This document shows, piece by piece, positions 1,698 through 43,370 of a stretch of DNA of 64,000 nt. The stretch's first letter is position 1; the number at the start of each line of letters is the position of its first letter. The stretch is from a virus (lineage: Duplodnaviria > Heunggongvirae > Uroviricota > Caudoviricetes), in IMG/VR virus record IMGVR_UViG_3300011772_000022, positions 16,259 to 80,258 of that record; one strand, given 5' to 3'. Both the position numbers and the translations under genes were made by a program. The notes beneath the pieces are model-generated. The model searched no databases. It was not told where the DNA came from and saw only the letters and a list, made by a program, of their open reading frames with translations.

Positions 1698-1950
1698 CAG
1701 TTGTGTTACGGATATACCGTTTCCGTATACCCTCTTATAGTTTCCTATAAGCTCAGACTATATCTTCAGGTTTTACCTGCTCCCCGTTTCGAGTTCACTT
1801 GAACCCTACGTCTCTCGACTAGTCGTTGAACCTTCGTGTATAGGTGTCTCTCGACGACTATAGTTGCTTGGCTGCTGATTACCCTCGACTTTACGTTAGG
1901 GCTTCCCAGACAATTAGAGGAGTTTATAAAGGAGACCTAGTTGTTGGTTA
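1698..1950 (-). other. putative self-splicing group I intron interrupting polymerase motif A (boundaries approximate)
   Basis: The upstream ORF ends ..NWWMTVGDLTNN* (T7-like WVQAGID with the catalytic Asp). The downstream ORF resumes ..GQMELRMTAHL after a ~250-nt gap. Joining after the U of GAT-T and before TA-GGT (following an intron-terminal G) gives WWMTVGD-LGQ-MELR, matching DYSQIELR. ACTGTAGG is present at both junctions. Confidence 0.5.
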
Positions 1951-3481
1951 AATCTCCTACAGTCATCCACCAGTTACGCTGAAGCTCTTGGAATGCATCA
2001 CGAATCTTCCATTGGATTTCATAACCAGTATGTTCCGGAGTACCTTCGTCACATGGTTCGAACTCTTTATCTTTCTCATTGTATCTAACAGGAACAACCG
2101 TAAACATAAACGCTTTCTGGATTGCCACCTCTAAAGCATTCGGGTCATCCTTATGTTCCTCACGTAATGGGTCAACCACCTTGTCATATTCTTCAATTGT
2201 AATGAAGTCCTTGAAGATGGCGCCACTCGGTAGATTCTGAAGGTTCGGTCCAGATGACGATAGACGACCTGTAACCGTACCTGTTTGATGGAAGGAGCCA
2301 TGTACCCGACCATCAATATCGATTGCCTTGATGATTCCTTTTACGTAAGTAGATTCAGTCTTTTTCAGTTTACGATATTTCAAGATTAATTCGATAAGTT
2401 CTAAGCCTTCCATTGTCAGGTCAGCCAGTGTTCGTTCTTCCGCAGCTTCTCGACCCATTTTCAATAACTCTTTTAGTGTAGCAGCATCAACCTTAACTGC
2501 CCCCTTGTCCGTCTTCGCAATGATAGGAAGTTTCTTCTCGGCATGTAGTACCTCTGCTAATTGTGGTCCACTTCCAATAGAGAATTCGTGTCCGGCTAAA
2601 GCGAAGATTTGTTTCTCAAGGATATCCATTTCTTTTAAGCAGCGGGCACCGATTGCTTCCAGTACCTCTTGGTTAACAGGCATACCACGTCGTTCTATCC
2701 CTTGAAGTACCCCAACGAACGGCATCTCCACTCCGAATAGAACATCAATAAGTTTCTGCTTTTGTAACAACGGATAGTATTTGATGAACAGTTTAGCAGT
2801 CGCCACAATATCCATCAGTGCGTACGGTAAGGTTAATGTAGCTGAAGCCTCATGGAACCGAAGTTTCTTCCCGAGAATCTTATCGAGCTTATTCATATCC
2901 ATCCCAAGGTCTTCTTTCGCCACGTACTTCAAACCGAAACGTTGACGTTCTTCTTTTACGAGCCATGCCATTACCTGTGTATCAGCACAGGATGCTCTTT
3001 TTGGTAGCTCTTCAATATGTTTCGCCATTGCTTCTTTCGTTTCCGGAGCCACCCATTTCGGTACACATAATTTCGGTCGTAAATCAATACCAACATTCAA
3101 GAAGATATCAGCATCATATTTCAGGTTGTGGGCAATTATCATCTTGTCGAAGTCCAAGAAGAATTCCTTCAGTGCCTCTACAACCATTTTGCGATTTAAG
3201 TATCCAGTCGTTCCCACAACCTTCTCTTGGTCAAGGTGGTACATCGTTGGAATGTACGCCGCATATTCTAGTTTCGTAATGTCATCGTCGATAATACCAA
3301 TACCGATACCACAAATTTCTGCTTTTAAGAATGATAGGTCAGTAGTCTCTAAATCGTACACAATATATTTTGCTTTCTTCAGCCGTGCTAATAACCTTTC
3401 TAATTGCATATGATACACAAGGATATTCTCAGCGTAATCAGGTAATTCTCTTACAGGTCTCTCCAATACTGGTGCTCCCAT
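1951..3481 (-). CDS. DNA polymerase I family, exon 1 (3'-5' exonuclease motifs YDLETTDL, HNLKYD, YALMD; thumb/fingers ..TGRLSSSGPNLQNLP)
   Basis: Conserved Exo I-III and polymerase motifs. Start set to MGAPVLE (ATG 3479-3481) behind RBS AAGAGGAGGAAACGGAA. Confidence 0.8.
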
Positions 3482-3575
3482 TTCCGTTTCCTCCTCTTTA
3501 AGTGAAAAGAAAGTACGTTCAGGTGTTGCGACCATGACGTACTTTCTTATAAGTGTTAAGTTTTAGTGTGCTAGA

Positions 3576-4511
3576 TTACATGAAACGGATTGGTGTTTCT
3601 CCACCAGTATCAGCAGGGTGTCCATCAAAAGGATTTTGTTGTTGCCCACCTTGTTGACCTTGGTTTGGATTGTAACCTTGGTTCGGATTATAATATGGTT
3701 CACCTTGGTTTTGACCGTAGCCTTGACCTTGTGGATTCCCATAACCCTGCCCCTGAGGTTGACCTTGCGGTTGTCCATAACCTTGCGGTTGGTAACCCTG
3801 TGGCTGATATCCTTGTTGACCATATCCTTGCGGTTGACCACCATAACCTTGTGGTTGACCGTATCCTTGTTGGTAACCACCTTGTTGCTGCTGATTTTGT
3901 TGATTAGGGTTTCGACCTGCTAAAATGTCAGCTAAGTAGCCCGGCTCTTTCGGAGCAATTTGCTTAAACATTTGTTGACGAATCGTTTCAAGCTCTTCAA
4001 CCGTAGGAAGTTTAAGAGTTGCAGTTACGTCCTCTAATGGGACAGGAATGAATGACCATTGAGTCTGTGAGTCACGACCTGTCTTTGTTACTTCCCATGC
4101 ATGATTCAATAAACCACGTTTGCTTTGTTGTGCTTGTAGCGCTTTCAGTGCCTTGATACCAAGTTTCACAATCTTCACCGCATTTTGGCGAGTATGTTTT
4201 TGGTTATCACGTCTAGAAACCCACTCTTCATAACGAGTGTCGATTGCTAAGTAAGCACCTGAAAATGATGGTTTATTACCAGTCGCACATAATGGGCAAT
4301 CCGGTTGTTGTGAGCATGTAAAGTAACGTTTCTGTGGTTTCAGGTAATGTTGGTAGTAGTTAACAGGTTTATCAGTTAAGAATACCAACGTTGCTTCCTC
4401 GTTTTCACCTAAAATGAAATCCGGGATGTAATTACCATTTTGCTCATCTAACTCCTTAGAGCGTTTTTCCACCGCATCGTAACCTTCAGACATCCATGAT
4501 AAATTTGACAT
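3576..4511 (-). CDS. putative ssDNA-binding/DNA-binding protein with Zn-finger ([10 protein letters not shown]) and Q/G/Y-rich disordered C-terminal tail
   Basis: Start MSNLSW behind RBS AAGAGGAGGAAATTTATT. The C-terminal ~90 aa are [14 protein letters not shown]-type repeats, reminiscent of the flexible tails of bacterial SSBs. The SSB assignment is tentative. Confidence 0.4.
3600..3840. repeat. degenerate tandem nucleotide repeats (ccttg(c)ggttg / ccataacc units) encoding the Q/G/Y-rich tail
   Basis: Visible periodicity in the DNA. It generates spurious ORFs on all other frames (3563..3880, 3590..3907, 3618..3923). Confidence 0.6.
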
Positions 4512-14905: not shown

Positions 14906-16249
14906 CTAAGAAAAGATGATTGACCCACTGTCATCGTCCTCCGGCTCATCCATAATAATGTCCTCTGCCAGTCGTCCGAAGTTTTTCGTATTTTCAAAGT
15001 CCCAATGAATAACAACGTTCGGCGTATTACCGTCACGAACAAGCATCAGGTTAATTCCCATTAAGTTCATCGCTCTCATCTCTTCATCACGGAATGGCTC
15101 AATAACCACATCCGAATCCTGTGCAAATGATTGTGCGAATGAGATTGTCGATTGGTCATTCGCTTTACCAACCTTACCAGTCTTCGCCGATAGCTGAGAA
15201 GATTGAATGATTGGTTTACCAGTCTTACGAGCAACACGTTTTAGTTTACGAGTAATGTTTGTAATCTTCTCCCACATTGCCGTTCCACCTTCTTCATCAT
15301 CTAAAAGGTAAGAACCGTCCACGATAACAAGGTCTGGATTGTATTCCTCAATCTTCGCCTGTACCGCTGATACACCATATCCATGTGAATCATCACCAGA
15401 GATAATGAAGTCACCAATGTCTTCATCTTTTAATGCATCCAGTCCGGCAAAGTATTCTTCCTTGTGTGTATCAGAAAGCATACCTTCCTTGTAATGCGTT
15501 GCATTCATCATGAAGTACAGAACATCGGCACGGGTTGCGATTTCATTGTTACCCATCTCTCGGGTAATGAATAAGACACGGAACCCTTGCTTGATTGCAT
15601 AGTTCGAAATTAGTACCTCAAGATACGTTTTACCTGTTTTCGGCATGGCAACAATGGAAATTAATTGCCCATCTTGAATTCCGCCCGTTGCTTTATCGAT
15701 TGGCTCAATACCTGCATAAGAGATACCAATAAGACCAAGACCATCTGCACGTTTGTTATATGCTTCTTTACGCTCTTCAACCTCCGTATTCCAGTGAAGG
15801 TCTTTTGCCACGTTTACTTCAGTTTGGATTTGTGACATCATACGAGTCAGAAGTTTTTCAGTTCCTTCCTCATCTTCCTTCTTCAGCAGCTCAACCGCCT
15901 GCATAATACCATCCGTCAGTTTCTCACGTTTACGTTTACGACGAACCTCTTTCATCCAATACGAAAGTGGCTCCACCGTGTCCGTTAATTTGAATCCCGG
16001 GAAGTATTGGTTAATGATTTCTAAAGATGCCGTCTTCTTATGTTCGTCATAATGTTCGAACAGGAAATGTGCCATCTGCTCTGCCACGGAACCGTCCTTG
16101 AAGAATACGTATCGGTATCCTCCCTCTTGTCGCTTCTCACGTTTTAGAATCTTGTTCTTCGTAAGCTCTCCTATTGCATTACCTCGGATTGCCTCCTTCA
16201 GGAGTTCCATCTCTTCACTCAGCCGTCTTTCTTCCATCATCTTGCTCAC
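14906..16249 (-). CDS. replicative DNA helicase (DnaB family)
   Basis: RecA-like core with Walker A AMPKTGKT, the FITREM motif, and an N-terminal DnaB-like domain. Confidence 0.8.
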   Translation of the reverse strand: MSKMMEERRLSEEMELLKEAIRGNAIGELTKNKILKREKRQEGGYRYVFFKDGSVAEQMAHFLFEHYDEHKKTASLEIINQYFPGFKLTDTVEPLSYWMKEVRRKRKREKLTDGIMQAVELLKKEDEEGTEKLLTRMMSQIQTEVNVAKDLHWNTEVEERKEAYNKRADGLGLIGISYAGIEPIDKATGGIQDGQLISIVAMPKTGKTYLEVLISNYAIKQGFRVLFITREMGNNEIATRADVLYFMMNATHYKEGMLSDTHKEEYFAGLDALKDEDIGDFIISGDDSHGYGVSAVQAKIEEYNPDLVIVDGSYLLDDEEGGTAMWEKITNITRKLKRVARKTGKPIIQSSQLSAKTGKVGKANDQSTISFAQSFAQDSDVVIEPFRDEEMRAMNLMGINLMLVRDGNTPNVVIHWDFENTKNFGRLAEDIIMDEPEDDDSGSIIFS

Positions 16250-16656
16250 TCTCCATAATGATAAATTTCACCTACATGCTGCACCCATTTCTCTTTACGT
16301 TTGTTTTCTACGGAAGCATGTAATGGATTATTATAAAAGTAAAAATGTATATGTCGTCGAGAAAGTAACATTTCTTTCTCCTTATTATCCTTCATAAAGG
16401 ACAACTTGGTATACGGAAAATCAACGTCGTCAAGTTTACCTTGTATGACCGCCTGTTCCTTTTCATCGTAACCGTGCCCGACCAAGTAAACACCAATACC
16501 ACGGTACATGATTGTATCCAACACCGGGACTGACTTCTTGTTCACTCGCAAAGATTTAGCGAACCCAAATAGTTTGGATTCGCTAAGGATGACGAGATTG
16601 TCAAGGTCAATCACAATGGTTGGTGCAAGCTCATTGCTTATGTCACCACCTAGCAT
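16246..16656 (-). CDS. hypothetical protein (136 aa)
   Basis: ORF coupled to its neighbours. Confidence 0.5.
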   Translation of the reverse strand: MLGGDISNELAPTIVIDLDNLVILSESKLFGFAKSLRVNKKSVPVLDTIMYRGIGVYLVGHGYDEKEQAVIQGKLDDVDFPYTKLSFMKDNKEKEMLLSRRHIHFYFYNNPLHASVENKRKEKWVQHVGEIYHYGE

Positions 16657-17358
16657 TTAAACCCCTCCATATTGTTCTCGTATTCTTCTTGCTTCCTGTA
16701 TTTTACGCCAATCCGGAAATGAGGATTGGTCCTCAAAATATAGTTTAATCGTGTTGCCTTCAATTAAAGATGCAACGGATACACCATACGTTTGTGATAA
16801 CATCGTAAGGGAAGCATTTGTCGTAAAGATTGTGGGTAGTAATCGATTGGTACGGTAGCGAATCAGTTCATCAAATACAGATGGAGCTAGTTCGCTGCGC
16901 TCTGATTGGAACCCTTTACCTACATCATCGACAACTAAAAAATCGCTATTCTTCACTCGTTTATCGTACAGGTCTGCTTTGCCGGAATCATACCATGCTC
17001 CTGCATAGAGATTAATGATTCCTGCAAGGTTTGCGAATTGCGTTCGGAATCCCTGCCTGATAGCAGCCTTTTGGACCGATACGGCAAGGTGGGTTTTGCC
17101 CACCCCGTTCATACCGTATAAAAATATTCCAGTACCTTCTTTACGATGGGTACGGATTCTAGCCGCATAATCGACCAGAGTTTGTGCCGTTTCAAAACGT
17201 TTGGGAATGATTACTCCACTATTATCTCGTATAGGGAAAGTTCGAAAATCGGCGGGATAGTATTTTTCTAATATGCCATGTCTTCTTTGTGTTTTAGGTT
17301 CCAAAGGACCGAAGACGTCACTCCCAATTAAAGTTTCCAGTTCCGTCATTGCCATCAT
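16657..17358 (-). CDS. helicase loader, DnaC/IstB-like AAA+ ATPase
   Basis: GMNGVGKTHLAVSV Walker A; FLVVDDVG Walker B. Confidence 0.7.
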   Translation of the reverse strand: MMAMTELETLIGSDVFGPLEPKTQRRHGILEKYYPADFRTFPIRDNSGVIIPKRFETAQTLVDYAARIRTHRKEGTGIFLYGMNGVGKTHLAVSVQKAAIRQGFRTQFANLAGIINLYAGAWYDSGKADLYDKRVKNSDFLVVDDVGKGFQSERSELAPSVFDELIRYRTNRLLPTIFTTNASLTMLSQTYGVSVASLIEGNTIKLYFEDQSSFPDWRKIQEARRIREQYGGV

Positions 17359-18364
17359 TCTTTTTCACCTCTGGTTTGTACTCTCTCGCACTCGATTTCT
17401 TTTGTTTTGCCGCTGAAGGATTCAGCATTTGAGGGATTATCGTGTTTCTATAAGCAAAGAAAACACCGAAGTTAGGGTAACCCTCTGGCAAATACGTGAG
17501 TTGTTTGTAGTTTTGTAGATAGAAGTCAATCGCATCAGCAACCTGTTCTGGCTCATATGCCGTCAGCAAGTTCTTGCATTGTCCTCTGTCCTTGTTCGTT
17601 GAAGCCGGAGATGTAATCCCCAGTTCCAATTTATACATATGTCGGAAGTAGGCAACTAGATGATTCGCATTCCATTTGCTCCGTGGGAGGTCTTGGAATC
17701 CTTTACCTCGTTTGTCCTTCTTCGTCGGTTTTTCTTCTGGTGCATATAGTTCATCTAAAACGTTCGGGATATCTTCTTCCGCTACCTCGTTTGGTTTGTC
17801 GGAAGGCATAACCACTTTAATGTTCTTTAGTCGTTCTGTGTCATCGGTAAAACTCATATCAGGTTCCGCCTCTGTCTTTTTTTCCTGTGGCGGTTCAGGT
17901 ATAGGTTCTTGATTCGGCTTTTGCTTCGGCTCCGGAGGTGGCGGTGGTGTCATACCTTCCTGTGCGACCATGTAAACAGAGGTGTGATTCTCTCTGGTGT
18001 AACCACCAAATGAACCCTTCTTGGTACAGACCACATAACCATCATCCATTGCTCGTTTGACCCCATCACTACATGCAGGTCTTGATAAACCAGTTAGCTT
18101 TTCAAATTGCGACAGGGACACCGCATCTTCTTCCTTGTAGACGGGCGCCCCTGTATCTTGGTCAATATGGCTTACCCACCCGTAAGTTTTACGGAACAAT
18201 GCCAACAAGACCTTTAATTCAGATAAACTTTTAATGTTGGGTAATGCTTCATCGAAAAACTCGTTGGGTATTGAAGTAAACCCTTTCATGTCCAACCGTG
18301 GTTTAAATCCGTTAAATTTGTTTCCCTCTTCCATACGTTTCATCCCCCATGAATATAATGTCAT
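17318..18364 (-). CDS. putative replisome organizer / replication initiation protein (N-terminal DnaD-like HTH, Pro-rich linker)
   Basis: The N-terminus resembles the phage replisome-organizer domain; PPPPPEPK linker. Sits directly upstream of the DnaC/DnaB pair. Confidence 0.45.
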   Translation of the reverse strand: MTLYSWGMKRMEEGNKFNGFKPRLDMKGFTSIPNEFFDEALPNIKSLSELKVLLALFRKTYGWVSHIDQDTGAPVYKEEDAVSLSQFEKLTGLSRPACSDGVKRAMDDGYVVCTKKGSFGGYTRENHTSVYMVAQEGMTPPPPPEPKQKPNQEPIPEPPQEKKTEAEPDMSFTDDTERLKNIKVVMPSDKPNEVAEEDIPNVLDELYAPEEKPTKKDKRGKGFQDLPRSKWNANHLVAYFRHMYKLELGITSPASTNKDRGQCKNLLTAYEPEQVADAIDFYLQNYKQLTYLPEGYPNFGVFFAYRNTIIPQMLNPSAAKQKKSSAREYKPEVKKNDGNDGTGNFNWE

Positions 18365-25377: not shown

Positions 25378-26796
25378 TTAACGTTTTTTGATGTCTAATA
25401 AATTCATAATCATATCAGAGTAGCCCGTGATAAGTTTCTGTGGCTCCCCGTTCTCCTTTGTTTTCCAACGTAGTCCTTCATGGATTAATACCTTTGTCAT
25501 TTCATATAGGTCTTCACTTAAAGTCTCATCAATATAGATAACATCATCCCCAAAGTGATATAGACCTTTTACGGCGATACCATTGCTTTCTAATTCTGAA
25601 GCGAATCTAACAGGGGGTAAATCATCTTTTCGTTCCAAGCCTAATACCTTTGCTGCTTTTTCTTCTGCTACCTCTAAGTCTAGGACAGGAGCAGACGTTG
25701 CAGCAGTTGTAGATTGTTTAACTTTAGACGTGTTCTTAATCACATCATCTACTTTCGGGAATCCAATGCTACCTAAGAAGTATCTCCATGCAGTAGGAAG
25801 TTCGATTAAGTGGTAACCCATATTTTCAGCTTCCTTATTCTTATCATTGTTTTCCAGAGAGGAAAGCATTAGCTTCTCTACGTCTACTGAATGACATTCT
25901 GCTACCGCCTGCTTCCATAGAGAGCGCATTGTATCCAAGTCTGTATCGCAATCATAGGCAACCATTGGTCCTTCACGAAGGTCAGCATATTTAGAAGCCT
26001 TCTCTTTATCCATCGCACCGTAAATGAAGTTCTCGATAAATTGCGTATCATATTCCATTTCTTTAAATACAACTCTTCCGATTTTCATTAATGCATCTGA
26101 GATGTTTACTTTCGTTCTATCTCGGTTCATCAGAGAGCGGTCTGTCAGATTGTATGCATATTTAATTTCCAGTGGGCTTTCGAAGCCAAAGAATTCTTCC
26201 TTCTTGATTTCTCCAATAAGAACCCCACGAATCCATAACTCATGATAGCGACCCGGTAGTACGGAATTACGAACCACATCATCTTGGTCAATATCTTCAA
26301 ATGGAGCAAACCCTTTAACGGCATGTAAGAATTCTTCTTCAGATACCTTCGCTTCAACCAGTGTTCCAACCCCTCGGTCATTCGGTTCGACTTCAATAGT
26401 CAAGACGTTTGTGTTGTGCTCTGTTTGCACCATTACGCCTTTGAATGTGTAGCCTACCGTTTCGACTTTGTGTTCGATATTATTTCTCGCCATTGCTAAA
26501 AGAAATAATTTCCACCCTTCACCGAAGTTACCTAATCCGTCTTCGTCATCTCGTTGTTCAGATTCTCCAATGTATAGATATCGTTTATCGAATCCTGTGT
26601 GTTGGTCTTTCAGTACGCCTACGCCTCTTTCATTGTCATAGAACAGTGTAGCCTTCTTACCAGATTTAACAGTTCCATATGCGATGTTTTGTGCTGCTTC
26701 TCGAAGTCCTTCCATTGCGCCCCAGTAGCTCACATAGTTTTCTGTTAGTCCCGTTGGAATAATTTCGTTACAAATCTCTAATTTATCAGTTGTCAT
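25378..26796 (-). CDS. hypothetical 472-aa protein with a weak GHKL-ATPase-like N-terminal signature
   Basis: EGLREAAQNIAYG / YDNERGVGV / DGLGNFGEGWK loosely resemble the N, G1 and G2 boxes of the Bergerat fold. Tentative. Confidence 0.5.
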   Translation of the reverse strand: MTTDKLEICNEIIPTGLTENYVSYWGAMEGLREAAQNIAYGTVKSGKKATLFYDNERGVGVLKDQHTGFDKRYLYIGESEQRDDEDGLGNFGEGWKLFLLAMARNNIEHKVETVGYTFKGVMVQTEHNTNVLTIEVEPNDRGVGTLVEAKVSEEEFLHAVKGFAPFEDIDQDDVVRNSVLPGRYHELWIRGVLIGEIKKEEFFGFESPLEIKYAYNLTDRSLMNRDRTKVNISDALMKIGRVVFKEMEYDTQFIENFIYGAMDKEKASKYADLREGPMVAYDCDTDLDTMRSLWKQAVAECHSVDVEKLMLSSLENNDKNKEAENMGYHLIELPTAWRYFLGSIGFPKVDDVIKNTSKVKQSTTAATSAPVLDLEVAEEKAAKVLGLERKDDLPPVRFASELESNGIAVKGLYHFGDDVIYIDETLSEDLYEMTKVLIHEGLRWKTKENGEPQKLITGYSDMIMNLLDIKKR

Positions 26797-26837
26797 TTTA
26801 AGCCCTCCAATAGTTTTATATGTGTGAAGTAATACCT

Positions 26838-26845
26838 GTTATAAT
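26838..26845 (+). promoter_or_regulatory. extended -10 promoter element TGTTATAAT (plus strand) inside the palindromic motif AATACCTGTTATAATAGGTATGT
   Basis: TGn plus TATAAT consensus; third copy of the 13346 motif. Confidence 0.35.
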
Positions 26846-26851
26846 AGGTAT

Positions 26852-27090
26852 GTCGTTCGATGTACCCTTATGTTAACCCATATTGGGGAAGATGTAAAGA
26901 GGTTTACCGAAACTATTGGTTTGCTTTTTGTTTACCAAAAATCAACAGTGACAAAAGCAAAAAATATATGGTAAGTTTGTATCATATTATGTGTCGAGTC
27001 GCATAATATAGATTAAGGATTGAATCTCTGGTTCGTCGTTAAGACCCATATCTTATAAAGTCTACCCTCGGTTGGGGTAGACCTTTTTCT
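26852..27090 (+). ncRNA. candidate plus-strand non-coding RNA (~240 nt) between the extended -10 promoter and the intrinsic terminator
   Basis: No RBS-preceded ORF. Bounded by the TGTTATAAT promoter (26838-26845) and the hairpin GTCTACCC-TCGGTT-GGGTAGAC plus T5 (27059-27090). It is the only long non-coding stretch in the replication region. Confidence 0.3.
27059..27090. terminator. bidirectional rho-independent terminator (8-bp stem; T-run on plus, TTTATAA on minus)
   Basis: aaagtctaccctcggttggggtagacctttttctt. Confidence 0.5.
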
Positions 27091-27155
27091 TGGTTTGATG
27101 TATACTAGGCAGGCGAGTAAATCACGCTAACCTTTTTCCTTTTTATCAACACGGT

Positions 27156-27191
27156 AAAGACCACCCCTATTCGGAGTGGTCTTCTTTTTCG
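27156..27191. terminator. hairpin AGACCAC..GTGGTCT plus TCTTTTTC overlapping the stop of the FtsK-like gene
   Basis: aaagaccacccctattcggagtggtcttctttttcg. Confidence 0.4.
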
Positions 27192-28639
27192 TTCAAGTCT
27201 TCAGCTCTGAGAATGTGAAAGGTTGAGTCGCCCAAGTCTTCTGGAAATTCAATCGGAGGTGTGTCGATTGGAGGAAGAGAAGATTCGAACACCTCTCTGT
27301 CATATTGTACCCGCATTTCCTCCATATATTCATGTGCCTTCTTCGTAGATAAAAATGGTACCTGAACCTCCGTTGTTAGATGACCAGATTGCAGGATAGC
27401 CCGCCCGGGAATATTCGGATTCAATTTAGCAGCTCCATCCTCTTGTTCACCTAGTAAGATTCGAGAGTTCAATTCATTCCGTACCCTGAATGCAACCGTT
27501 ATCGGGATATTGGCTTTACTATCACCCGGAAGTACCTTTGCATCCGGACGTTGAGTTGCCACGAATAAATGTATCCCTAATGCTCTTGCTAATCGTAGCA
27601 GCCTGTTAATCATGGAATGGGTGTATTCTAAAAGGTCTTTGGCTTTCATCATTCCCTTAGGTGGAGCCGAATTACCTTTAGTAGGTACAATGTTCAATCC
27701 ATAGATATAATCCTGCAAGTGTTCCGGGATGTTCCATAGCTCACTCTTCCCTACGCTTTCTGGTGAGAGTTCCGCCAGTTCATCGATAACCAACAAAATG
27801 TATGGTAGGTGCCCGACTGCTTCACGATACTCTCGAATGTTTGTGACCCCTGCATTGTAGAAGTCAGCCTGACGTTTATCCATTTCGGCTTCCACCGTTC
27901 GTAGCACTTCAAATGCTGAGAAGGCTTCCTTTGAGATTTCCCTGACATGTGGAGCATTTTTAAATAATTGAAATTCAAGACCTCCCTTTAAATCAATCAT
28001 ATAAATTTCTAAGTCGGTCGGTGTCTTCAGTGACATGAGTGATGTAAGAGCCTGCCGTACGAATACGGATTTACCTCCACCAGTTTCCCCACCGACCAAG
28101 ATGTGTGGACGTTTACCTAAGTCAACAATCTGTAAACCTTTCTTGCTCTCTCCTATAATGATAGGAAGTTCCATTCCTTCGGCTCCATCAAATCGTCTCG
28201 TGCTGAAAGTTTCTTGATGTTTTAAATGACCAGTTGAAATTTCCATTACGCAATACTCATCCTCCTGATACGTTCCAATCTCGGCATTGAGGTTTAGTTC
28301 AATAGCCGGAAGTTTACGGTTAATATCATCGATAGACATACCTGCGGGAAGTTTAAAATAGGCTTTGTATAAATAGTCCTCCTTTCTCTCCTCTTTTATA
28401 TAAGAAGGCGTGTATCTTTTGGTCTCACCTAAAAGCGGTTTGTGTTCCTTGTATAATCCGAATGACTCCCAGTTGTTAGCCAAGCGATAAGTTAACGGTG
28501 ATTTGAAGCGGTGGGTCTGATAAATTTTAAACCCCGCATAAGATGTTAAAGCAATGCCACCAACCTTAAATACATTTGCACCAACAATTTTCATAGCGGT
28601 TCCCAATACCGCCGGAGTAAGAATACTCATCAGTCCCAC
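27167..28639 (-). CDS. FtsK/SpoIIIE-family DNA-translocase-like ATPase with an N-terminal membrane anchor
   Basis: N-terminal hydrophobic segment; Walker A VGGETGGGKS; Walker B LLVIDE; the conserved ATQRP motif of the FtsK family. Confidence 0.75.
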   Translation of the reverse strand: MGLMSILTPAVLGTAMKIVGANVFKVGGIALTSYAGFKIYQTHRFKSPLTYRLANNWESFGLYKEHKPLLGETKRYTPSYIKEERKEDYLYKAYFKLPAGMSIDDINRKLPAIELNLNAEIGTYQEDEYCVMEISTGHLKHQETFSTRRFDGAEGMELPIIIGESKKGLQIVDLGKRPHILVGGETGGGKSVFVRQALTSLMSLKTPTDLEIYMIDLKGGLEFQLFKNAPHVREISKEAFSAFEVLRTVEAEMDKRQADFYNAGVTNIREYREAVGHLPYILLVIDELAELSPESVGKSELWNIPEHLQDYIYGLNIVPTKGNSAPPKGMMKAKDLLEYTHSMINRLLRLARALGIHLFVATQRPDAKVLPGDSKANIPITVAFRVRNELNSRILLGEQEDGAAKLNPNIPGRAILQSGHLTTEVQVPFLSTKKAHEYMEEMRVQYDREVFESSLPPIDTPPIEFPEDLGDSTFHILRAEDLNEKEDHSE

Positions 28640-28640
28640 C

Positions 28641-28838
28641 TCACAAGAATAAGTTTAATACAGGTAACATGAAGGCAACCTCTTTGGCTAGAATGTACCA
28701 AAGAATCGTAATGGTACCAACCCGAATCCATTTGACAAGTTTAGTCTTATTCTGGGTGATAGCAAATTTCTCACCAAGCCATCCTCCGAATATTGCCCCA
28801 GAACCTTTTGCTACGATAATCGATATTGTCTCAACCAT
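28641..28838 (-). CDS. small membrane protein (65 aa, 2 TM helices)
   Basis: Hydrophobic; immediately upstream of and coupled to the FtsK-like gene. Confidence 0.45.
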   Translation of the reverse strand: MVETISIIVAKGSGAIFGGWLGEKFAITQNKTKLVKWIRVGTITILWYILAKEVAFMLPVLNLFL

Positions 28839-28936
28839 GTCTATCCTCTCCTTATGGACAAGTTTGTTATACCCATATACTCTAGGTAGCCTCCGGCGAT
28901 TTTTCGTTAGGAAAAATCCGTTACCTAGAGTATATG

Positions 28937-30484: not shown

Positions 30485-30563
30485 GCAATCTTTAGTTTAT
30501 TTATAGCTTTATATTGTTAGTTAAAATTCTTAACCTCATGTGGTAAAGAATCTTTACCTCATT
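30485..30563. repeat. conserved ~78-bp intergenic element, copy B
   Basis: gcaatctttagtttatttatagctttatattgttagttaaaattcttaacctcatgtggtaaagaatctttacctcat; same orientation as copies A and C. Confidence 0.8.
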
Positions 30564-30843
30564 CACTCTTTTTGTGTATCTCACCTGTCATCGTTATTTC
30601 CCAGATAGTCGGTTGAATCAAGAAATAATATTCAGGTGTCGCAAGCGGATTCGGTATGCATTTAGTACGCAGAGTCCATTTGATTGAATAGTTATCAAGA
30701 GGGACACCTTTATCTTCGAAGTATCCCGTAATGGCATGTTGCATCCGATTTGTTTCTAGATGTATCTGGTCATCCGTCGGTGCCTCAGTGCATCCCCATC
30801 TGGTCGATAACATTGCGCTGCTACCTATGAATTCATCTCTCAA
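30559..30843 (-). CDS. hypothetical protein (94 aa); its 3' end overlaps repeat copy B
   Basis: ATGA coupling with the upstream gene supports it, but the C-terminus runs into the repeat. Confidence 0.35.
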   Translation of the reverse strand: MRDEFIGSSAMLSTRWGCTEAPTDDQIHLETNRMQHAITGYFEDKGVPLDNYSIKWTLRTKCIPNPLATPEYYFLIQPTIWEITMTGEIHKKSE

Positions 30844-33797: not shown

Positions 33798-34604
33798 TTA
33801 CTCTTTGATTTGGCAGTACCAACCGTTGTCATCCATGAATTTCTTGAATTCAGAAATTGCAGGTTCAGACAGTCCGCCAGTAACGAAGAACATGTCTCCA
33901 CGACCAGTGAATTCAGCTCGTGCCCACCATTTACGGTCAAGCATGTATTTAGAAACCTTAGCAATCGCTTCAGCATCATTGAATCCACCTGTTTCGAAAT
34001 ACTTAGGCTTTGCATCCTGACCAAGGAACCAAGCAAGGTCTTTGTCACCTACTAATTTATTACGGTCCACTTTGCCGATACCATCCATCCAACCGCCTGT
34101 TTCGCCATCAGCACATTGCCAGATGTCACAAGGGTAGGCAGGTTTTGGTCCGCCGTAACGTGGAATCCATAAGAAGTCAGCCTTCAAGTTATTCAAACCA
34201 TACTTCGGATACATATGGTGAGAAATGTACACGCCGACTTTCCAACCTTTAGATTTACAACGGTCAATGAATGCCTGAGATGCAGCAGCTAGATTAGTAG
34301 CTCCACAAGATGCTAATGTGTCATCCTCAACATCTAACACTAAGAACTTAGCATGAGGATTCGTTCTAGCCATGAAATCATCTGCTTCAATGATTGCATC
34401 TTTAACAGATACATAACATCCGTAAGCGTAAGCAGCATGAGGTACATTACGAGCTTCTAAAGCTGCAACGTATTCTTTGTACTTCTCGTCGATTTTGTTA
34501 GAGCCATATTGCACACGACAAATTACAAGACCGACCTGAGGAGCGACCTTATCCCAGTTTGGATTACCATTCCATTTGGAAACATCAATAATTTCGTCAC
34601 CCAT
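33798..34604 (-). CDS. endolysin, glycoside hydrolase family 25 muramidase with a C-terminal cell-wall-binding region
   Basis: IIDVSKWNGNPNWDKVAPQVGLVICRVQYG and the acidic catalytic residues of GH25; start MGDEIIDV behind RBS GAGAGGTGGAATTTAAA. Confidence 0.75.
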   Translation of the reverse strand: MGDEIIDVSKWNGNPNWDKVAPQVGLVICRVQYGSNKIDEKYKEYVAALEARNVPHAAYAYGCYVSVKDAIIEADDFMARTNPHAKFLVLDVEDDTLASCGATNLAAASQAFIDRCKSKGWKVGVYISHHMYPKYGLNNLKADFLWIPRYGGPKPAYPCDIWQCADGETGGWMDGIGKVDRNKLVGDKDLAWFLGQDAKPKYFETGGFNDAEAIAKVSKYMLDRKWWARAEFTGRGDMFFVTGGLSEPAISEFKKFMDDNGWYCQIKE

Positions 34605-34627
34605 TTTAAATTCCACCTCTCAAAATA

Positions 34628-43288: not shown

Positions 43289-43370
43289 GCAATCTTTAGT
43301 TTATTTCTCTTTATATTGTTAGTTAAGATTCTTTACCTCATAGAAGTAAAGAATCTTTACCTGATATAAC
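43289..43370. repeat. conserved ~78-bp intergenic element, copy C (tandem palindromes GTTAAGATTCTTTAC / GTAAAGAATCTTTAC)
   Basis: gcaatctttagtttatttctctttatattgttagttaagattctttacctcatagaagtaaagaatctttacctgat. Confidence 0.8.

Follow-up and report, generated by a model that had tools for sequence, protein, structure and literature searches.

In plasmid copy control, small antisense RNAs act on the mRNA of the replication initiator, as in CopA/CopT of R1, RNAI/II of pT181, and RNAIII of pIP501. These RNAs are short, constitutive, and terminator-ended, they are complementary to the initiator mRNA, and they set the supply of the initiator. The subject here is a 370-bp noncoding gap (26797–27166) in a 64,000-nucleotide (nt) stretch of DNA from a tailed virus (IMG/VR record IMGVR_UViG_3300011772_000022, positions 16,259 to 80,258; referred to as the window), whose plus strand may encode a short RNA directed against the phage's own Rep-O-like replication initiator. 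Like the plasmid RNAs, the predicted gap RNA is short, terminator-ended, and complementary to initiator mRNA, and it may present its target-binding sequence in a small loop (CCCAUA, closed by AAGA/UCUU). The plasmid RNAs, however, are cis-encoded, overlap the rep leader, and are fully complementary to their targets, whereas the gap RNA would lie 3–9 kb from its target and be 77–90% complementary over 26–35 nt inside the coding region. Its carrier is also a phage of about 100 kb rather than a plasmid.

Phages have regulatory RNAs of their own. In the small RNAs CI of P4 and c4 of P1/P7, a short conserved sequence pairs in trans with repeated boxes on phage transcripts. Both kinds arise by processing of sense transcripts, and the immunity or antirepressor operons on which they act belong to temperate phages of gram-negative bacteria. 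At this locus, too, a box occurs twice in the same sense, once in the gap and once in the O-like gene, but no processing signal, lysogeny module, or termination target was identified. The OOP RNA of lambda is an RNA of about 77 nt against early/replication genes, with a promoter beside the replication region and an intrinsic terminator (PMC12197685; PMC3985674). The gap RNA would be similar to OOP in size and placement. However, OOP is encoded in cis, opposite the 3' end of cII, and the O mRNA is not its partner, while the gap RNA has no gene opposite to it and is complementary to the initiator gene. Lambda PreS and VP882 VpdS are trans-acting intergenic small RNAs of about 50–90 nt that tune replication-related functions (PMC12197685). 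The predicted gap RNA is likewise small, intergenic, and replication-related. In contrast to those two, which are Hfq-dependent, come from gram-negative systems, and have mainly host mRNAs as targets (dnaN for PreS), it would have a phage gene as its apparent target, and the phages that carry it probably infect spore-forming Firmicutes. Finally, an initiator can recognize a sequence in its own gene as DNA. The gp38 protein of SPP1 binds direct repeats in its own gene 38 (oriL) and in a distant intergenic oriR; each of these origins adjoins an AT-rich unwinding element, and oriR lies between transcription signals (PMC6316719).

A conserved terminator and 19-mer on the plus strand

The gap separates an FtsK-like gene from a gene coding for a protein of 472 amino acids (aa), and nearly all genes of the window, these two included, are on the minus strand. 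A preliminary description of the window had proposed that a dedicated noncoding RNA is transcribed from the plus strand of the gap, from an extended -10 promoter to an intrinsic terminator. Every feature it listed is found in the sequence, shifted by about 1 nt. It had claimed that the gap holds no minus-strand open reading frame (ORF) of at least 60 codons and no plus-strand ORF preceded by a ribosome-binding site. In 26797–27166 there is no minus-strand ORF of even 30 codons, and the only plus-strand ORFs are 26860–27006 (48 aa) and 26870–26974 (34 aa), neither with a Shine-Dalgarno sequence. The 48-aa ORF was considered as a gene and rejected, as it has no ribosome-binding site and a 1-nt indel shifts its frame in L002, a close relative. 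No tRNA or tmRNA was found.

Taken alone, neither the extended -10 nor the terminator exceeds chance. The promoter core TGNTATAAT occurs 6 times in the window (4.3 ± 2.5 expected), and the scan finds 3 terminator-like sites where 1.9 ± 1.3 are expected in 3 kb. Folding was tried as a means of choosing the strand and is uninformative because both strands of the gap fold better than shuffled sequences (z = -2.87 for the 241-nt plus-strand RNA and -3.68 for the minus strand). With the single-sequence signals at chance level, the decision had to come from related phages.

The 472-aa protein, used as query in a homology search, returned 42 proteins, and contig look-ups together with one metagenome motif scan gave six distinct versions of the gap: window/L002, L003, L004 (the same as L005 and L006), L013 (the same as L016 and L017), L018, and L020. 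The close relative L002 comes from an NCBI metagenome assembly, and its 472-aa protein is 89% identical to the one in the window. The order of FtsK-like gene, noncoding gap of about 300–560 bp, and 472-aa homologue is kept in the window, L002, L003, L004, L013/L016, and L018. In L020 the gap is shorter, 165 bp as annotated, although the annotated gene start is probably too early. More distant relatives (L007–L009, L019, L021, and L022) have small ORFs in place of the gap, and the element is absent from them.

Read in the sense of the genes, all versions have the same order. The FtsK stop codon is followed by one or two sense-oriented terminators and an A-run, then by a GC-rich hairpin whose sequence is different in every version, 5–9 nt, the conserved box, and a short variable hairpin. 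After these come a second box, (C)TATATTATG, and, 17 nt further, (T/G)TACACC, then a sense promoter of the form TTGCAA/TTTACA-17-TAnnnT, a leader hairpin, a ribosome-binding site, and the ATG of the 472-aa gene. Read in the opposite direction, which is the plus strand of the window, conserved sequence, hairpin, and T-run are by their predicted elements the 3' half of a typical small RNA.

The conserved box is a 19-mer, TCGTTAAGACCCATATCTT, at 27036–27054 on the plus strand (AAGATATGGGTCTTAACGA in gene sense and UCGUUAAGACCCAUAUCUU as RNA), and it is the candidate seed. It is identical in window/L002, L003, L004, L013, and L018, whose neighbouring 472-aa proteins are only 37–39% identical, and L020 carries a diverged version. 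It is present as a single copy in the window and, across the variants, lies 5–9 nt upstream of the terminator hairpin. The hairpin of the window, GTCTACCCT-CGGTT-GGGGTAGAC at 27060–27082, has 9 pairs, 5 of them GC, and is followed on the plus strand only by the T-tract CTTTTTCTT (27083–27091); the sense strand has an A-run before the hairpin. The six variants all have a GC hairpin at this place, each with a sequence unrelated to the others, and 5 or more T come after it on the antisense strand, compared to 0–4 T on the sense side. The scan calls a terminator on the antisense strand in the window, L003, L004, L018, and L020, and the bulged hairpin of L013 folds as a terminator like the rest, so six of six variants fold as terminators. 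The terminator of the preliminary description is thus confirmed in place and orientation (hairpin at 27060–27082, T-tract to 27091), and the presence of an antisense-oriented terminator at the same place in every relative lifts it above the chance level of the single sequence. The extended -10 is not rescued in this way.

The constraint on the element can be seen in comparison with L002. The flanking coding sequences are 87.1% and 90.0% identical at the DNA level, while the gap core (26797–27100) is 97.7% identical and the FtsK-proximal part (27101–27166) only 77%, with indels. The substitutions in the gap core fall at 27092 and 27098 (in the T-tract and just after it, both past the terminator hairpin), at 27013, and within 26899–27001, which holds most of them plus an indel. 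In 27002–27092, where background divergence would give about 8–9 differences, the sole change apart from 27013 is a G to T at 27092, which lengthens the T-run; 27013 itself falls between the proposed -10 and the proposed start site. The sense promoter and leader (26797–26898) have zero substitutions.

The predicted short form of the RNA, of about 76 nt (27016–27091, plus), would consist of a weak 5' hairpin, a conserved single-stranded body, and the terminator. Folds were judged sequence by sequence. A consensus fold by RNAalifold on a MAFFT alignment was rejected as meaningless for the hairpins, whose stems cannot be aligned by sequence. The equivalent stretches of L003, L004, L013, L018, and L020 fold with the same layout (z from -0.45 to -2.6). 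The 19-mer stays constant while the hairpins on both sides vary in sequence, and the body is predicted to be mostly single-stranded; in individual folds AAGA and UCUU within the 19-mer can close the CCCAUA loop. The short form lies opposite no minus-strand ORF of at least 30 codons, and no sense promoter is predicted upstream of the box, so it is not cis-antisense to a gene. A 240-nt form, which is unsupported, would overlap the leader of the 472-aa gene.

Nearer to the FtsK gene there is a second hairpin followed by a T-run, as the preliminary description had said. It is present at 27157–27183, then CTTTTT (27157–27189 in all, plus), overlaps the FtsK stop codon (27167–27169, minus), and was missed by the scan owing to a loop longer than 8 nt. 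It is probably a bidirectional terminator that also backs up the first one. A promoter-like TAGACC-17-TATACT (27078–27106, plus) overlaps the first terminator and aims at this hairpin and its T-run to 27189. It could yield a second plus-strand transcript of about 75 nt, and the second hairpin carries a weak VrrA-like Rfam match. Because the region is poorly conserved in L002, such a transcript would probably be nonfunctional. The Rfam scan that had been suggested as a check gave no family for the gap: with Rfam 15 at E up to 10 there was only noise, the best being VrrA at 22.6 bits versus 50, on the second hairpin. The gaps of the six relatives gave no Rfam match, and the sole match in the whole window is a group I intron outside the gap.

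In L004 the gap contains an extra structured segment of about 170 nt (3470–3640, plus) between the FtsK terminator and the antisense terminator. This segment carries a TATAAT-like box of its own and a terminator on the sense strand, and it may represent a second small transcript.

Complementarity to the replication initiator gene

When mismatches were allowed, a search found the Rep-O-like genes of L003, L004, and the window to contain near-copies of the 19-mer. In the window, the gap stretch 27027–27052 (plus) is complementary to the O-like mRNA over 26 nt, with 20 of 26 Watson-Crick pairs or 22 of 26 when G-U pairs are counted. The candidate target box lies at 17835–17860 (minus), in the part of the gene that codes for the linker between the two domains (peptide DMSFTDDTE), about 9 kb from the RNA locus; across the phages the distance is 3–9 kb.

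Each phage's gap element was then aligned locally with its own O gene, using 300 shuffles and reverse-complement controls. The match is 23/29 in L003, 30/35 in L004, 27/32 in L016 (the same phage as L013), and 28/31 in L020, with no shuffle of 300 reaching the score in any of these. In the window it is 20/26, and 10 of 300 shuffles reach the score. All of the matches are oriented so that the O mRNA is complementary to a gap transcript from the antisense strand, and the reverse-complement controls are at background. In four loci, with both strands considered, no second match of the element is better than the O site, and the pair of gap and O gene is the strongest internal repeat of each locus. 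L007, which is without the gap element, has no such repeat with its own O gene.

The O box is found at the same linker position in the window, L003, L004, L016, and L020. The linker, which joins the two O domains and is rich in proline and lysine, varies elsewhere, and the box stands out in it as a conserved island (peptide DMSFTDNSD or EDRDVREAVD). The match between gap and O gene follows the phage. For example, the diverged L020 element reaches a score of 47 with its own O gene but no more than 21 with any other, and none of the other elements exceeds 20 with the O gene of L020. The peptide does not drive the match either: the 19-mer has three synonymous sites that never vary, three nonsynonymous changes separate the gap box from the O box, and the TATATTATG box downstream falls into three different reading frames among the variants. 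In terms of duplex energy, the pairing is about 6.5 standard deviations (SD) more stable than that of shuffled RNAs in L004, 7.5 SD in L020, and about 2 SD in L003 and L016.

From these observations we infer a transcript, its 5' end, its pairing in vivo, and a consequence of that pairing. An RNA would be transcribed from the plus strand, antisense to all neighbouring genes and divergent from the early promoter, starting near 27016 downstream of CATAATATA and ending at the intrinsic terminator at 27060–27091. Its single-stranded body, with the 19-mer UCGUUAAGACCCAUAUCUU, would pair with a 26–35-nt coding segment of the Rep-O-like mRNA in the inter-domain linker. The pairing could lower the synthesis of the initiator by duplex-directed cleavage or by a block of translation, and the lowered supply of initiator would limit or time the initiation of replication. 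Judged from the comparison of relatives, it is fairly probable that the gap contains a plus-strand small RNA gene. That this gene makes a short trans-acting antisense RNA controlling the phage's own replication initiator is given a probability of about 0.5.

Several results weigh against this interpretation. The complementarity is strong in L004 and L020 and moderate in L003 and L016, but it is weakest in the window phage itself. There the duplex energy is not better than that of shuffled RNAs, the best site in the O mRNA being within about 1 SD, and when the full RNA body is used, the O box is not the best site in the O mRNA. When a 35-nt segment containing the seed was run along the window, the O box was the third-best trans site of 3198 (-26.5 kcal/mol); ranking targets by thermodynamics, with the O box third, was accordingly set aside as not decisive. 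The differences between gap and O boxes show no excess of G-U-compatible transitions (7 compatible versus 7 incompatible), and the covariation rests on essentially two independent lineages, the 19-mer group and L020. The 19-mer is strictly invariant while the O boxes drift, which points to an additional constraint, for instance a different target or a partner protein. Also, the proposed promoter at CATAATATA is not called by the scan in the 19-mer lineages as its -35 is poor, and the placing of a box inside the initiator gene with a copy in a long intergenic region has a precedent in the SPP1 origins, which is taken up below.

Transcription start and competing explanations

The start of the proposed RNA is placed by a -10-like box, CATAATATA (27002–27010, plus, with TAATAT at 27004–27009), which reads TATATTATG on the other strand and is -10-like there as well. 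The box is kept in the window, L002, L003, L013, and L018, and L004 has CATAGTATTATA in its place. In L020 the antisense strand carries a sigma-70 promoter, TTGACA-18-TACAAT, that matches the consensus at 11 of 12 positions and lies about 75 nt before the end of the terminator; it is back to back with the sense promoter, and its TACAAT is positionally equivalent to CATAATATA. An RNA of about 76 nt is predicted on the basis of this conserved proximal box and the L020 promoter at the equivalent place, and a start near 27016, giving about 76 nt rather than about 240 nt, is most likely. Further upstream is the box TTTGTATCAT (26976–26985, plus), the window form of GGTGTA(A/C)TAT and possibly a weak -35. 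In the relatives GGTGTA(A/C)TAT lies 17 nt before CATAATAT, and in the window the spacing is 2 nt longer. A hairpin between these two upstream boxes was considered as a conserved RNA structure and rejected: it is strong in the window and L004 and absent in L003, L013, and L018. With the hairpin absent in three lineages, the two boxes are conserved as DNA sequence and not as RNA structure.

On the sense strand, the scan finds a promoter-like TTTACA-17-TAACAT for the 472-aa gene (26870–26898, minus) and a second, TCGACA-18-TACCAT (26968–26997, minus), which is back to back with the -10 box of the RNA. Equivalent sites of the form TTGCAA/TTGTAA-17-TAnnnT are flagged in L004, L016, and L018 and were seen by eye in L003. 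A leader box, ACAC(N)TAAAA (window 26810–26835, minus), is found about 15–25 nt upstream of the ribosome-binding site of the 472-aa gene and, by eye, at equivalent positions in L003, L004, L013, and L018. Also by eye, a 5' stem-loop that mostly starts with CAGG follows the predicted sense start site, and AACACC-type boxes, 2–3 per gap, could be operators.

The longer RNA of the preliminary description would run from the extended -10 TGTTATAAT (26837–26845, plus), with a start near 26853, to the same terminator, giving about 240 nt. Lying opposite the promoter and 5' leader of the 472-aa gene, it would be a cis-antisense RNA and could act by interference between face-to-face promoters or by pairing with the leader, and it may coexist with the short form. 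The motif is exact and recurs as GGTGTTATAAT in L003, and the sense promoter TTTACA-17-TAACAT would put two start sites about 10 nt apart and face to face. Also in its favour are the unchanged sequence of 26797–26898 in L002, the fold of the 241-nt RNA (z = -2.87), and a distal antisense promoter-like TTGACC-18-TATTCT with TG in L016. Still, TGNTATAAT occurs at chance frequency, and the motif is intact elsewhere only in L003, degenerate in L018 (TATAAG), and absent in L004 and L013. It sits in the loop of the leader hairpin ATACCT-ATTATAAC-AGGTAT of the 472-aa gene, and a sense-strand role would account for this conserved leader equally well. Folding of the minus-strand RNA is no worse, most of the substitutions of the gap core, plus an indel, fall in the middle of the long form (26899–27001), and the hairpin between the upstream boxes is not conserved. 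This long form is therefore doubtful as the product of the gap, and the promoter role of TGTTATAAT and the length of 210–240 nt are probably wrong, even though the motif itself is there. What stands of the original proposal is a dedicated plus-strand transcript ending at 27060–27091, which is supported by the conserved orientation of the terminator, the invariant 19-mer directly upstream of it, and the block that is nearly unchanged in L002.

The main rival is a site at the level of DNA to which the O-like initiator or another phage DNA-binding protein would bind, with one copy in the initiator gene and one in the gap. In that case the gap would serve as a second origin, or as a roadblock assisting a switch in replication mode, and the terminator would merely insulate it. 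As in SPP1 oriL and oriR, a sequence found in the initiator gene recurs between genes, in a long region with transcription signals on both sides (PMC6316719), and the window shares with SPP1 the gene order of initiator, loader, and DnaB-like helicase. The O box is also in the inter-domain linker, which is where lambda has its origin (PMC6022878). After the gap box comes an AT-rich stretch, reaching 80% AT near 26992, which is about 40–60 nt from the gap copy and is also promoter DNA, and an invariant noncoding copy together with a drifting coding copy would fit an optimal protein site. However, the SPP1 origins have direct repeats and an adjacent AT-rich unwinding element, whereas here iterons are lacking: each O gene and each gap has one copy of the box, two-copy repeats do not exceed chance level, and the O copy has no adjacent AT-rich element, its flanking 100 nt being 46–62% AT, like the gene average. 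The box of L020 differs from that of the 19-mer group at about 40% of positions (by eye) despite a similar O protein; in the N-terminal (DNA-binding) domain the similarity of L020 to the others is 66–78%, that of the others among themselves is 66–80%, and the putative recognition helix is nearly identical. A DNA site would also leave unexplained the strand-specific terminator 5–9 nt from the box in all six variants and the 11/12 promoter of L020 aimed across the box. Here, unlike in the SPP1 origins, the box is embedded in a unit of promoter, seed, and terminator. A DNA site is the less likely reading, though far from negligible. It and the antisense RNA are not mutually exclusive. One could even consider that RNA and O-gene box together make an RNA-guided replication switch that acts on DNA and not on mRNA, the RNA being a trans-encoded component of a protein-initiated origin. 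The phage origin would then be in the O linker, as in lambda and SPP1, an R-loop formed there by the RNA, with its complementarity to one strand of the origin, would prime or block initiation, and the gap copy would be both the RNA gene and a second, competing site. This combination is quite improbable.

It is also improbable that the gap makes no functional RNA and is just an early promoter/operator region, with the motif as operator and the terminators stopping stray antisense transcription into the late genes. The gap does lie at the border of the late and early modules, sense promoters are predicted in every variant, and the recurrent ACACC-type boxes could be operators (by eye). But the significant, phage-specific match of the motif with the O gene would be unaccounted for, the motif is neither palindromic nor repeated, and in L020 a consensus promoter drives across it into the terminator. 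The same applies to the earlier alternative that the terminators only block read-through, which fails to explain the invariant motif and its match in the initiator gene. Least probable, to a very low degree, is a sense mini-gene starting within the 19-mer (ATG GGT CTT AAC GA..., giving an ORF MGLND...), whose peptide would mimic the DMSFTD segment of the O linker or be a small toxin controlled by an antisense RNA. The frame MGLN(D/E) is open in all five 19-mer variants, with 20 codons in the window (27048–26986) and 22–44 in relatives, and GGAAG is found just upstream of the ATG. That Shine-Dalgarno-like sequence, though, ends merely 2 nt before the ATG, the synonymous positions of MGLN are invariant, which points to a constraint at the nucleotide level, and neither the sequence nor the length of the peptide is conserved past residue 5, the next conserved box being in three frames. 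The scan predicts no sense promoter in the stretch from the FtsK gene to the box, and the peptides fall short of the hydrophobicity of a typical type I toxin. A type I toxin–antitoxin system was rejected for these reasons, the mini-ORF being conserved in neither length, frame, nor hydrophobicity.

The phage and what the element would mean

The window phage is novel and myovirus-like, with a contractile tail. Genes for tail sheath, tape measure, and tail fibre lie at 36–61 kb (minus), and the endolysin gene (33798–34616, minus) codes for a GH25 domain and a PlyG-type cell-wall-binding domain. The upstream neighbour of the gap in the sense direction is the FtsK/SpoIIIE-like gene (27167–28639, minus; PF01580, E = 4.8e-27). 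Its start, together with an upstream 65-aa ORF (28641–28838), forms a stretch (28567–28866) that is 97–99% identical to L002, compared to 87–91% around it. The downstream neighbour is the 472-aa gene (25378–26796, minus), which belongs to a family without a name (phrog_6077); its protein has no Pfam match and no PDB sequence match. The invariant N-terminal residues of the family (E33, N37, D64, G68, and the GLGNFGEG motif) resemble the GHKL/Bergerat ATPase fold, and one distant homologue is annotated in its record as a histidine-kinase-like ATPase. The preliminary description had placed the gap between the replication and FtsK modules; the FtsK side is right, but the 472-aa neighbour has no recognizable replication identity and, going by its sequence, is not evidently a replication protein.

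Past the 472-aa gene, the minus strand continues with small genes, the Rep-O-like initiator, the loader, a DnaB-like helicase, primase, helicase, and DNA polymerase, so that the replication module starts about 9 kb beyond the gap. The initiator gene is at 17318–18364 (minus; phrog_678, E = 4.8e-18); against Pfam Phage_rep_O it scores 25 bits, under the cut-off of 28.7. The DnaC/IstB-like loader gene is at 16657–17358 and the DnaB-like helicase gene at 14906–16249, both minus. The gap is thus the border of the late (tail, lysis, and FtsK) and early (replication) modules. A group I catalytic intron (Rfam RF00028, 80.7 bits, E = 6e-19) is found at 1734–1991 (minus), between a DNA-polymerase ORF (1937–3535) and the ORF 946–1689, and the polymerase gene appears to be split by this putatively self-splicing intron. 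An element of about 75 nt, ..TCAGGTAAAGATTCTTTACC..ATGAGGTTAAGAATCTTAACTAACAATATAAAG..AAATAAACTAAAGATTG with two small hairpins, is present in three copies in the window (about 30490–30565, 789–861, and 43289–43362; its gene-sense is the minus strand) and also in L002. The copies lie just upstream of a YdjM-like gene, just upstream of a 428-aa gene of the tail region, and, for the one at about 789–861, just downstream of the 946–1689 ORF. It looks like a repeated promoter-leader or regulatory module.

No deposited phage genome appears close to this phage. Its contig is known only in the form of one Logan assembly, nothing in INPHARED matches the gap at the DNA level, and the protein matches there are only distant, at most 25–30% identity for the neighbouring genes and none for the O-like protein. 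Scans of IMG/VR proteins with single proteins found nothing, and a scan with an alignment found one prophage of unrelated architecture. A motif scan of IMG/VR and genomes gave only chance matches inside coding sequence, encoding DMGLN, while the metagenome motif scan gave one new relative, L013. In the relatives, small acid-soluble protein (SASP) and SpoIIIAC-like genes are found beside the FtsK-like gene (L004 801–971 and 1639–1959; L020 1–266 and 1257–1469). Together with the endolysin domains of the window, these predicted genes point to spore-forming, Bacillus-like hosts.

Few regulatory RNAs are known from phages of gram-positive bacteria. The 2025 review of phage small RNAs makes no mention of Bacillus or gram-positive hosts and lists nothing comparable (PMC12197685), and in the literature no trans-encoded RNA aimed at a phage's own replication initiator was found. 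If the antisense RNA is real, large virulent-type phages of Firmicutes would use plasmid-style antisense control of initiator supply. It would also mean that they carry a compact, conserved module of promoter, seed, and terminator whose specificity can be reprogrammed.

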